Notes under the pieces: model-generated
The model's database searches: none
Told to the model about the DNA's origin: nothing
Seen by the model: the letters and a program-made list of their open reading frames with translations, nothing else
Made by a program: the position numbers and the translations under genes
Assembly (NCBI GenBank): GCA_963697895.1
Contig: OY969100.1
Location: forward strand, 352,001 to 416,000
Direction of reading: 5' to 3'
Origin: an uncultured Methanomicrobiales archaeon
GTDB taxonomy: Archaea; Halobacteriota; Methanomicrobia; Methanomicrobiales; Methanospirillaceae
Length of the DNA stretch: 64,000 bases
In this document: positions 40,748 through 43,991 of the stretch, piece by piece
How the letters are laid out: each line of letters opens with the position of its first letter
Numbering within the stretch: position 1 is the first letter of the stretch

Positions 40748-42043
40748 ATGCGCAAAGCCTCCATCCTCCTCGAGAATGCCACGCTCCCCGACGGCAGGCG
40801 TGCTGATCTTTCTCTTGCCGGGGGAATCGTTTCCCACGTGGGTGCCCCCGTCCATGCAGAACGGGTTATTGACTGCTCCCGCTTTATCGTGATGCCTGCA
40901 GCGACCGATATGCACGTGCATATGCGTTCCGGTGTCCAGCGTGAGAAAGAAGACTGGGAGAGCGGAAGCAGGAGCGCCCTTGCGGGGGGAGTAACAGTGG
41001 TCGTCGATCAGCCGAATACTATTCCGCCACTTAATACACAGGAAGCAATAATAAGTCGGTTAGCCGATGCACGGTCCCATAGCTGGTGTCATTTTGCGGT
41101 GAATGGAGGTATTGGTCAGGGGGTGGACCTCCTTAAACTGTGGCAAAGCGGGGTAACGGCATTTGGGGAGATATTTATCGGCCCCTCCAGCTATGGGAGC
41201 GCTGTTCCGCATGAGATACTCTGCAAAGCCTTCGGAGATCTGAAGGAGCTCGGGGCTATGGCGACGATTCATGCCGAGGAAGTATGTTTCATCCGGGCCG
41301 GAACTCTGGAAGAGCACCATCGATCGCGTCCTCCGGCAGGGGAGGAACGGGCGGTCAAAGCGGTACAGGACGATAACCGGGTAAAAATTTCACTACATTT
41401 CTGCCACCTGAGCACCGCCGGGGCGGTTCAGGCGGCGGGAGATGCATCGGTCGAGGTAACACCCCACCATCTCTTCCTCGCGCTGGAACAATTTGACCCG
41501 AAGGACACACATGGGAAGGTAAACCCTCCGATCAGACCGGAAAAGGAGCGGCGACGTCTCTGGGAGTTATGGGATCGGATCGATGTGATCGCATCAGATC
41601 ATGCGCCGCATTCCTCTGATGACAAAACGGAATCTTTCGAAGATTCACCATCCGGTGTCCCCGGCGTGGAGACGATGATGCCACTTCTTATGGCCCAGGT
41701 CCTGAACAAACGCTGCTCGCGTGTTTCTGTAATAGAAAAGACCTGTTATCGTCCTTCCCAGCTTCTTGGTATCCCGGCCGCGGGGTTTACTCCTGGGTGC
41801 AGGGCCGATTTTGCTCTCTATCCCCGGCAATGCCGACGGATAGACCCCGATATGCTTCACAGCCGCGCGGGATGGACCCCATTCGCCGGGCATGCGGCCG
41901 CCTTTCCTGTCTTCGTGATCATGGGGGGTGATCTGGTATTCGAGGAGGGAGAGTTCCTTCCCGGGCAACCCCGGTGGTATCATGGAAAGGGATATATAAA
42001 TCACGAGGTGATGGATGATGGTGCCGACAAAGCGCATCCATAG
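40748..42043 (+). CDS. pyrC: Dihydroorotase
   Basis: DMHVHMR, AGGVT..DQPNT.PP, HAE, CHLST, EVTPHHL, KVNPPIR, SDHAPH, SGVPGVET. Confidence 0.9.
   Translation: MRKASILLENATLPDGRRADLSLAGGIVSHVGAPVHAERVIDCSRFIVMPAATDMHVHMRSGVQREKEDWESGSRSALAGGVTVVVDQPNTIPPLNTQEAIISRLADARSHSWCHFAVNGGIGQGVDLLKLWQSGVTAFGEIFIGPSSYGSAVPHEILCKAFGDLKELGAMATIHAEEVCFIRAGTLEEHHRSRPPAGEERAVKAVQDDNRVKISLHFCHLSTAGAVQAAGDASVEVTPHHLFLALEQFDPKDTHGKVNPPIRPEKERRRLWELWDRIDVIASDHAPHSSDDKTESFEDSPSGVPGVETMMPLLMAQVLNKRCSRVSVIEKTCYRPSQLLGIPAAGFTPGCRADFALYPRQCRRIDPDMLHSRAGWTPFAGHAAAFPVFVIMGGDLVFEEGEFLPGQPRWYHGKGYINHEVMDDGADKAHP
41986..42000 (+). promoter_or_regulatory. BRE/TATA promoter inside the pyrC 3' end, likely driving the H/ACA RNA
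   Basis: Purine-rich GAAAGGGA followed by TATATAAA (41993-42000), ~21-25 nt upstream of the first RNA helix at 42021. Confidence 0.6.
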
Positions 42044-42194
42044 GTCCCCGGGCGATCTCATGGCGATTGCCTTGAAATGAACCACGGGACAACCCGGTTG
42101 CGCGACAGGCACCGCCCGGCCGAGGGTTAAAAAACGGGTGAAGGACGGCAGCACGCCACTGATGATCCCTGTTTGTTAATGCCGGGCGACATCC
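42021..42194 (+). ncRNA. Two-hairpin box H/ACA guide RNA (23S rRNA pseudouridylation)
   Basis: Hairpin 1: GCGC/GCGC lower stem, CCCG/CGGG upper stem, GA..UGA K-loop-like apex, ACA at 42105-42107. Hairpin 2: CGCCCGGC/GCCGGGCG lower stem, AAACGGG/CCTGTTT upper stem, UGA/CUGA K-turn-like motif, ACA at 42189-42191. Both 3' guide strands begin 14 nt before their ACA. Confidence 0.8.
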
Positions 42195-42207
42195 TTCTTC
42201 CATTACC

Positions 42208-42540
42208 ATGAATCCGGATATATCCCCTGCAATTGCAATAGAAGAAAAGGGTGTCGTCGTCACGATAGAGGCCACTACCGGCTGCCGGGAAGATCAATTT
42301 CCCTCCGGATATAACAGCTGGAGAAAGTCTATCGGATGTCATACGACAGCACATCCTGCTGAAGGCAGAGCAAACCGGGCGATCGTTCGGCTGATATCAG
42401 AAGTCTGTTCGGTTTCCCGATCTCAAGTCCGGATCATATCGGGTACCACTTCTTCTCTCAAGCGAGTCCGCATTACCGGCAGATCAGCCGAAGAGATCTC
42501 CAAAATACTCACAGATCTGCTGAACGATCATACCGCTTAA
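42208..42540 (+). CDS. DUF167 (UPF0235) family protein
   Basis: FPSGYNSWRK, PAEGRAN.A, V.IISGTTSSLK.V.I. Confidence 0.85.
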   Translation: MNPDISPAIAIEEKGVVVTIEATTGCREDQFPSGYNSWRKSIGCHTTAHPAEGRANRAIVRLISEVCSVSRSQVRIISGTTSSLKRVRITGRSAEEISKILTDLLNDHTA

Positions 42541-42722
42541 ATTTAACGTAGGAGGCACTTTCCTGAAAGGAATATATGGTACATAAATCATAAAATTTAT
42601 ACAATAAAATATAAATAAAAATATTTTTCCTGAACCAATAGTTTAAATAATACGCCATGCGATTATTCGTCACCTATGATCGCGTGTCATCATATTTGCA
42701 CGAAGCATGGGGGTGCATTTCA

Positions 42723-43991
42723 ATGTATTCACCAGATACCACCAAGTACCTTATTCATCTTCACCTCGAGGCCGAGGGGGTGGTCGAGAAACCCGATGTC
42801 ATAGGGGCTATTTTTGGCCAGACAGAAGGGTTACTCGGCGAAGACCTCGATCTGCGGGATCTGCAGCGGACTGGACGCGTGGGAAGAATCGACGTCCAGA
42901 TCAGCAGTAAAAAAGGGGAGACCAAGGGAGAAATACTCATCTCATCCTCACTTGATCGTGCGGAGACGGCAATCCTTGCAGCATCGCTGGAGACGATCGA
43001 CCGGGTCGGTCCCTGCGTCGCGCACGTCTCCGTGGATTCGATAGAAGATATTCGGGTAAACAAACGAAAGAAGATCATAAACCGGGCAAAGGAGCTGCTC
43101 CTCGATTCCTTCGAGGAGGGCACCATCGACTCCTATGAGCTCCTCGATGAAGTCAGGGAGAGCATCCGGATCGAGAAGATCAGTACCATCGGTGATGATA
43201 AAGTTCCCGCGGGGCCGAACGTACTCGAATCTGACGCGATCATCGTCGTGGAAGGCCGGGCCGATGTGATAAATCTTCTCAAATTCGGCATAAAAAACGC
43301 AGTAGCTGTTGAGGGAACCCACATCTCCCGAACCATCATCGATCTCTGCGAAAAAAAGACCGCGACCGCATTCCTTGACGGGGACCGGGGGGGAGAGCTT
43401 ATACTTCGCGAACTTCTTCAGGTGGCTGATATCGATTATGTCGCGTATTCTCCCCGGGGGAAGAGTGTCGAGGACATGACCAGAAAGGAGATCATCAAGG
43501 CACTCAGAAATAAAATACCGGTAGAGTATGTAAAAGAGCAGTATCTTGAGGAGTCACCCGGCGAAGAGCCGCCAAAAGAGCAAAAACCGGGAAAGACGCC
43601 AGTCTCCCGGTCTCCGCAGGAAGCAGCAGAATTGCCAGTCGAACAGATGGATAAAAAATTCAAGCCGAAATTCCCCATTCGACGGGCAAAGGAGCCAGCC
43701 CATAAGGCAGCACCGGTAACCCTGAAAGACCACTTGGATGCGGTCAAGGGTCATCATATCGCACGTTTTCTTTCATCCGATCTGGTAATCATCAGAGAGA
43801 TAAAAACGGAAGATCTGGATCGAGTACTTGACGAGCTGAACGGAGATGTCGCAGGGGTGGTCACCGATGATGCGGTAACTCAGAAACTGCTGGACCATAT
43901 GGTGGGCAAGGGGCTCGAGTACGTCGCGGCACGTGAATTCAAGGGTATAATCAAGCGCCCGCTCACGATCAGACTGATGAAGATCGCGTGA
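42723..43991 (+). CDS. dnaG: Archaeal DnaG (TOPRIM; exosome-associated)
   Basis: [47 protein letters not shown] 42723 preferred. Confidence 0.96.

Follow-up and report, generated by a model that had tools for sequence, protein, structure and literature searches.

A 64,000-nucleotide (nt) stretch of the genome of an uncultured Methanomicrobiales archaeon (contig OY969100.1 of assembly GCA_963697895.1, positions 352,001 to 416,000; hereafter the window) carries an unannotated two-hairpin RNA gene of 174 nt at window positions 42020–42193 of the + strand. This element is very probably the gene of a box H/ACA guide small RNA (sRNA) with two guide hairpins, serving Cbf5-mediated pseudouridylation of 23S ribosomal RNA (rRNA). 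The RNA would represent the sR-h45 / Pf7 lineage in the class Methanomicrobia. Three pseudouridines are predicted from it in the functional core of the ribosome, in helix 69 and in the peptidyl-transferase region. The assignment is built on what was observed directly: the anatomy of the RNA, its conservation and covariation, the complementarity of its pockets to the rRNA of the same genome, and the presence of the protein genes. Both the RNA family and its mechanism have been described before, in Haloferax and Pyrococcus, and the RNA described here does not add new biology to them.

Each of the two units consists of a hairpin, a pocket and an ACA box, and each hairpin has a kink-turn of its own. 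The order of elements in both is that of archaeal H/ACA guides, with a lower stem, a pocket, an upper stem and an ACA box 3′ of the lower stem. The original prediction, made from the sequence without database searches, had described two hairpin-pocket-ACA units with 3′ guides starting 14 nt before ACA, kink-turn motifs and a GUGCC/GGCAC helix, and all of these can be read in the sequence (Table 1). For archaeal H/ACA RNAs, the rules as given in the sR-h45 study place the target U 15 ± 1 nt from ACA and the distal G:A pair 9–10 positions from the base of the upper stem P2 (PMC7075261). The last guide base, A42091 in hairpin 1 and G42175 in hairpin 2, lies 14 nt before ACA, which brings the target U to 15. 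The distal G:A is found at the 9th position from the base of P2 in hairpin 1 and at the 10th from the base of P2′ in hairpin 2. Judged from the letters, the facing G and A residues of both kink-turns would adopt sheared geometry.

The genome has one 23S and one 16S rRNA. To locate targets, every U of these rRNAs was scored for contiguous pairing with the guide strands on both sides of an unpaired U-N dinucleotide. Hairpin 1 has a unique best site in 23S at U2619 (E. coli 2586), where 8 + 4 = 12 base pairs (bp) are formed, two of them G-U, while the next best site has 7. A target around E. coli U2586 had been foreseen for this hairpin, and the sequence GCUGGGUU-U-A-GACC is exact in the organism's own 23S with the target U at 2619. 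For hairpin 2 the unique best 23S site is U1959 (E. coli 1915), with 4 + 8 = 12 bp, one of them G-U, and the next best site has 8. At this hairpin the predicted site, E. coli U1915 in helix 69, proved right and the letters given for it were one base off: UAAC-U-A-UAACCCUC had been expected, and the target in the organism's own 23S reads UAAC-U-A-UGACCCUC, with G at the place of an expected A (UGAC, not UAAC). One guide-target pair is therefore a U-G wobble and not U-A. Apart from this base, the original prediction held in everything that could be checked. Pairing of the pockets with the organism's own 23S, the check suggested with the original prediction, thus gave a unique best site for each. 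No site of more than 8 bp was found for either pocket in 16S and 46 transfer RNAs. Shuffled guides reached 12 bp anywhere in 23S in 8 of 2000 trials for hairpin 1 and in 26 of 2000 for hairpin 2. Both pockets thus show the two-strand complementarity around U-N, of at least about 8 bp, that is asked of an H/ACA guide.

Folding of the single sequence does not decide the structure either way. The fold of the element is only mildly better than that of shuffled sequences (z −2.07 on the + strand, −1.49 on the − strand), and the case therefore rests on conservation, covariation and the uniqueness of the targets. A 186-nt blastn query matched 56 of 60 relatives at E ≤ 3e-5; the four relatives without a match are 62–93% complete assemblies. 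The 56 sequences were aligned (alignment A1), a structure of 45 pairs was derived and a covariance model, R1, was built from it. With R1 the RNA was found in 151/151 genomes sampled from the class, belonging to six families, at one place per genome except in G039, where it is split. Among genomes of other orders of the phylum, 66 of 132 were positive with full-length relatives of the RNA, and the full-length matches in many other families have E values of 1e-8 to 1e-19.

Covariation was counted on the model alignment A2, which has 58 rows. Standard pairs are formed by 92.7% of the cells, as against 34.5–43.1% when the 3′ partners are slid by 1–3 columns. The stems and the ACA boxes are conserved across the relatives, where covariation had been proposed as a further check: compensatory changes on both sides occur in 36 of the 45 pairs, and none of 500 shuffles reached any of the observed measures. 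Such changes are seen at all 8 pairs of the hairpin 1 lower stem P1 (58 rows), at 7 of the 9 model pairs of the hairpin 2 lower stem P1′ (96.9% of cells paired) and at 3 of the 5 pairs of the closing helix P0, in whose 4-bp core 96.5% of cells are paired. The model pair G42136-C42169 does not form in 39 of the 56 relatives with letters there. The letters expected to be invariant in a guide RNA, namely those of the ACA boxes, kink-turns and guide cores, hardly vary while the stems covary. The 5′ pocket strand of hairpin 2 has GGG in 52/56 sequences and GGGU in 40/56.

The split RNA of G039 (L057 500-891, minus strand) has an A/T-rich insertion of about 215 nt, containing a perfect hairpin, between its two hairpins. 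The hairpins are adjacent in G075, of the same genus; the insertion in G039 is comparable to the long spacer between the hairpins of haloarchaeal sR-h45.

By homology with the archaeal H/ACA ribonucleoprotein (RNP), the gene would be transcribed, its RNA assembled with proteins and the modifications themselves carried out as follows. L7Ae would bind each hairpin at the kink-turn, and Cbf5-Nop10-Gar1 would bind at the lower stem and the ACA box. The open pocket would pair with 23S rRNA to either side of a U-N dinucleotide left unpaired, and the target U would be placed about 15 nt from ACA, in the active site of Cbf5. Hairpin 1 is thereby predicted to direct pseudouridine formation at U2619, which lies close to the peptidyl-transferase centre between helices 90 and 93, and hairpin 2 at U1959 in the helix-69 loop. 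As in Haloferax, a second uridine, U1961 (E. coli 1917), is probably modified by hairpin 2 as well; UAUG would stay unpaired and both uridines would be modified in turn. Helix P0, specific to the clade, pairs the 5′ end with the linker after the first ACA, so that hairpin 1 is closed in a three-way junction that includes hairpin 2. Genes for the proteins are present in the genome, with a match to Nop10 (77.3 bits), a TruB_N domain in a Cbf5-like open reading frame (ORF) of 345 amino acids, and two L7Ae-family genes.

U1961 sits two bases beyond U1959, and the helix-69 letters of the organism's own 23S are GGGGGUAAC-UAUG-ACCCUC. The original prediction had let the pocket shift along a run of A residues to reach E. 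coli U1917. Such a shift is not needed: in the published description of sR-h45, its second stem-loop (SL2) modifies both uridines from one pairing that leaves UAUG unpaired (PMC7075261), and the same UAUG is present here.

An RNA of the same H/ACA type might nevertheless work in a more restricted way, either with hairpin 2 modifying U1959 only and not U1961, or with one hairpin serving mainly as a scaffold. This is possible, and on balance we consider it unlikely. Pairing of A42129 with U1961 and of U42128 with G1962 is possible, and double modification needs U-N-U to be unpaired, according to the sR-h45 study (PMC7075261). Pairing can likewise reach U1961 in 17 of the 56 relatives, and the homologous motif of P. 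abyssi is described as having made just the 1915 equivalent in vitro (PMC2584109). A scaffold role would fit genus g30, described below, which keeps hairpin 1 though its target U is gone. The two additional pairs are, however, weak (one A-U, one G-U) and not conserved. For the double modification of U1959 and U1961, which we prefer, it also counts that the best 5′ guide pairing stops short of U1961 in 39 of the 56 relatives, as it does in Haloferax, where both uridines are modified.

The targets hardly vary. Target letters identical to those of this genome were found in the 23S fragments of relatives in 32 of 33 cases for helix 69 and in 38 of 39 for the U2619 site (UUU-A-GACC); the two exceptions are a fragment of G005 and G056 of genus g30. 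The only 23S-like fragment found in G005, L092 (G005:C68), is 75% identical to the 23S of this genome, has a different helix-69 stem and is probably a foreign contig. That variation in the 5′ guide of hairpin 2 tracks changes in the helix-69 target was considered and rejected, since 32 of 33 relatives have an unchanged target. The variation of this guide accordingly reflects a variable extent of pairing.

At the hairpin 1 target, the equivalent of E. coli 2586, the 23S of genus g30 has C in 17/17 copies from 9 genomes; the 23S of G056 (L089) is an example. The 189-nt stretch with the target C is 100% identical in all 17 copies, the fragment having been found in 9 of the 31 g30 genomes. All 12 g30 guide RNAs inspected (L058, L166-L176) are altered on both guide strands of hairpin 1, unlike those of every other genus. 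GGUC is changed to GGCC, AACCC is changed to AACA plus a variable base, and the 3′ strand is 1 nt shorter. These RNAs retain the kink-turn, ACA, P0 and the hairpin 2 guides (GGUCA and GUUA). Three of the 12 have a 5′ strand, GUGUU, that can pair along its whole length with the 3′ strand AACAC, and from this complementarity the hairpin 1 pocket may be partly zipped in those three. The genus thus offers a rare natural test of guide-target coupling, in which the target U was lost, the guides were changed and the hairpin was kept. It amounts to one evolutionary event, yet it is what one would expect of a hairpin 1 whose purpose is to modify that uridine. A new target for the altered hairpin was sought in 23S and 16S of G072, in three registers and with contiguous pairing only; the best sites have 6–8 bp, and retargeting is unsupported.

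An equivalent of P0 was not seen in the other-family sequences inspected, and this helix would appear, from the sequences compared, to be a distinctive feature of the class. Tentatively, and with less than even confidence, we suggest that P0, acquired in this class, locks the hairpins in a three-way junction and that hairpin 1 has a structural or assembly role beyond guiding. If true, such a role would explain why g30 kept hairpin 1, with kink-turn, ACA and P0 intact, after the target uridine had changed to C and the two guide strands of this hairpin had ceased to be complementary.

The element lies between an upstream pyrC-like (amidohydrolase) ORF at 40748–42043, which runs 24 nt into it, and a DUF167 ORF that starts at 42208, 14 nt after its end; the identity of both neighbours had been correctly predicted. 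The order pyrC - RNA - DUF167 is kept in 70 of 71 loci of the same order, some genomes being counted twice. This tight fit between the genes would suit a cis-acting element of a neighbouring messenger RNA (a DUF167 leader, or a terminator or 3′ end for the pyrC-like gene) with no separate guide RNA. In 12 loci from other families the two neighbours never occur together (a pyrC-like gene is upstream in 1, DUF167 downstream in 0), yet the RNA is retained in all of them. Furthermore, a leader or terminator leaves the invariant ACA boxes, the kink-turns, the rRNA-complementary pockets and the covarying stems unexplained, and no site resembling an intrinsic terminator was found. A cis-acting element is thus highly improbable compared with a separate H/ACA guide RNA. 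Least probable of all is some other structured RNA that binds L7Ae, of the C/D type or from another kink-turn RNP, with coincidental complementarity to rRNA: UGAUGA-like and UGA motifs as in C/D boxes do occur and no Rfam family, H/ACA or other, matches, but the kink-turns lie inside hairpins, the pocket and ACA distances are H/ACA-specific, the pockets match exactly the two rRNA sites of the sR-h45 hairpins in the same order, and shuffled guides rarely pair so well anywhere.

Several points weigh against the assignment as a two-hairpin H/ACA guide of 23S rRNA. Transcription and the RNA ends at 42020–42193 are predicted, and a search for RNA sequencing runs over 41800–42600 found none. No Rfam family matches the element, the whole window giving 0 matches at the gathering thresholds. 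The covariation figures are somewhat inflated, A2 having been fitted to the proposed structure and its sequences being related. The match to Gar1 is weak, at 23.7 bits against a Pfam cut-off of 29.3. One side of each pocket pairs over a short distance, 4 bp GGUC/GACC in hairpin 1 and 4 bp GUUA/UAAC in hairpin 2, and guide bases A42089 and C42090 would stay unpaired at the hairpin 1 junction. Chance alone yields sites of at least 11 bp across the genome (7 for hairpin 1, 54 for hairpin 2), so that the specificity of the pockets for rRNA is assumed from what holds in the family. Because the targets hardly vary, guide-target co-variation rests on one evolutionary event, that of genus g30. A map of pseudouridines or other rRNA modifications for this lineage was not found in the literature.

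Upstream of the RNA gene, a 7-mer rich in A/T starts between −33 and −24 from the RNA start in 47/56 loci, with the mode at −28/−29; the control windows gave 3/56 and 22/56. This TATA-like element, at a fixed distance from the RNA, speaks for an independent gene. It mostly falls within the last pyrC codons, which read Gly-Lys-Gly-Tyr-Ile here and Gly-Arg-Gly-Tyr-Ile in most relatives. A bacterial-type scan found no sigma-70-type promoter or intrinsic terminator at the locus, and none is expected in an archaeon. The pyrC-like ORF of this genome and of 11 other loci continues into the RNA gene and stops at the UAG of the 5′ pocket strand of hairpin 1; at the remaining loci the pyrC stop codon comes earlier. 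The gene after DUF167, at 42657–43991 of the window, has a Toprim domain, which would suggest an archaeal DnaG-type protein.

Table 1. Features of the two-hairpin RNA gene and its putative promoter. Positions are those of the window; slashes separate pairing partners, and fractions are counts among the 56 aligned sequences.
Feature	Position	Strand	Remarks
Probable TATA box of the RNA gene	41990–41998	+	Within last codons of pyrC-like ORF; putative promoter
P0 closing helix, 5′ strand GUGCC	42021–42025	+	Pairs with 42108–42112; G42020 may add a sixth pair
Hairpin 1 lower stem P1, 5′ strand	42032–42039	+	Pairs with 42096–42103
Hairpin 1 pocket	42040–42046 (5′ strand), 42089–42095 (3′ strand)	+	Sequence and alignments
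Hairpin 1 5′ guide GGUC	42043–42046	+	Kept in 55–56/56; target scan: pairs with 23S G2621-C2624 (GACC)
Hairpin 1 upper stem P2 and kink-turn	42047–42088	+	Covariation of stems on both sides; conserved letters
P2 pairing	42047–42052 / 42082–42088	+	A42084 bulged; sequence and alignments
Hairpin 1 kink-turn	42054–42055 (5′ GA), 42076–42078 (3-nt bulge), 42079–42080 (3′ GA)	+	G42054 faces A42080, A42055 faces G42079; G42054 55/56, A42055 56/56, U42078 56/56, G42079 56/56, A42080 55/56
Above hairpin 1 kink-turn	42056/42075, 42057/42074 (pairs), 42062–42071 (apical stem-loop)	+	
Hairpin 1 3′ guide AACCCGGU	42091–42098	+	Starts 14 nt before ACA
Hairpin 1 3′ guide, AACCC	42091–42095	+	Pairs with 23S G2614-U2618; kept in 55–56/56
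Hairpin 1 3′ guide, GGU	42096–42098	+	Can extend pairing to 23S G2611; also part of P1
Hairpin 1 ACA box	42105–42107	+	56/56
P0 closing helix, 3′ strand GGCAC	42108–42112	+	Directly 3′ of ACA box 1; covariation
Hairpin 2 lower stem P1′, 5′ strand	42113–42120	+	Pairs with 42181–42188
Hairpin 2 pocket	42121–42131 and 42175–42180	+	Sequence and alignments
Hairpin 2 5′ guide GAGGGUUA	42122–42129	+	Pairs with 23S U1961-C1968; core GGG(U) pairs with A1963-C1966
Hairpin 2 upper stem P2′ and kink-turn	42132–42174	+	Stems covary; conserved letters
P2′ pairing	42132–42138 / 42167–42174	+	U42170 bulged; sequence and alignments
Hairpin 2 kink-turn	42140–42141 (5′ GA), 42161–42163 (bulge), 42164–42165 (3′ GA)	+	G42140 faces A42165, A42141 faces G42164; G42140 51/56, A42141 56/56, U42163 56/56, G42164 56/56, A42165 53/56
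Above hairpin 2 kink-turn	42142/42160, 42143/42159 (pairs), 42147–42149/42155–42157 (apical stem)	+	
Hairpin 2 3′ guide GUUA	42175–42178	+	Pairs with 23S U1955-C1958 (UAAC); GUU 56/56, A 51/56; starts 14 nt before ACA
Hairpin 2 ACA box	42189–42191	+	56/56; probable 3′ end region of RNA

As the original prediction had expected, standard annotation misses this RNA; it is unannotated and has no Rfam match. With the Rfam threshold relaxed to E ≤ 10, the region 41800–42400 gave a match to sR7 (C/D) as its sole hit and none on the element. The sR7 match lies at 42286–42364 within the DUF167 ORF, and its 12.7 bits (E 2.8) are at chance level. When Rfam HgcG (RF00064), the model for Pf7/Pab40, was searched over the whole genome, the locus was undetected; the best matches, elsewhere, have 8.8 and 8.1 bits (E 4–7) against a gathering threshold of 77 bits. 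No paper describing this RNA was found in the literature on Methanomicrobiales or other methanogens, in a search that could not match the slash-written family name. Rfam is thus without a model that detects an RNA present in all the class genomes and in half of the other-order genomes searched. The alignment and model built here could seed an RNA family.

Among known guide RNAs, eukaryotic counterparts are yeast snR191 and human U19, each of which is described as a single guide RNA for both helix-69 uridines, the equivalents of E. coli 1915 and 1917 (PMC2584109). Unlike the RNA described here, they are small nucleolar RNAs that have an H box and use Nhp2, not L7Ae at a kink-turn. Archaeal counterparts are Pf7, Pab40, Pho40 and Afu4 of Thermococcales and Archaeoglobus (PMC2377435). 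The two haloarchaeal hairpins are reported by Grosjean et al. to be homologues of Pf7 stems II and III, and motif 3 of Pab40 to guide the helix-69 site in vitro (PMC2584109). According to the same source, the hairpins are adjacent in Thermococcales and separated by a long spacer in halobacteria; the hairpins described here are adjacent, as in Thermococcales. The archaeal RNAs of that group have three motifs against the two hairpins here, and for motif 2 of Pab40 activity was seen at another site.

The core guide letters are common also to other families of the phylum. Two haloarchaeal-type loci (L153 144-346 and L154 109-300) have the same core guide letters, AACCCA in one hairpin and GAGGGUUU and GUUAG in the other, and a G+C-rich spacer of about 45 nt lies between their two hairpins. 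The model R1 gave weak split matches in haloarchaeal-type genomes, with 23–26 bits per hairpin and E of about 1e-3 per genome.

A close parallel is sR-h45 of Haloferax volcanii, which is about 200 nt long. Deletion, rescue and in vitro experiments are reported to have assigned pseudouridine (Psi) 2605 to its first stem-loop (SL1) and Psi1940 and Psi1942 to SL2 (PMC7075261). These Haloferax sites are given as the equivalents of E. coli 2586, 1915 and 1917 (PMC2584109). The parallel with sR-h45 had been drawn in the original prediction and holds, the sites and the order of the hairpins being the same (PMC7075261). Compared with the published description of sR-h45, the RNA has the same two 23S targets, the same hairpin order and the same core guide letters. 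The target of SL1 is described as the third of three U's, the first two of which pair with two guide A's (PMC7075261), and the 5′ hairpin here likewise targets the third U of a UUU run, with two guide A's pairing the first two. In both RNAs the 3′ hairpin is directed at the helix-69 loop and has UAUG at its pocket, and each hairpin has a kink-turn and an ANA box. The two RNAs differ, as far as that description goes, in what joins the hairpins: a 56-nt linker with an H-like box in sR-h45, and 5 nt in the RNA described here, those 5 forming P0 with the 5′ end.

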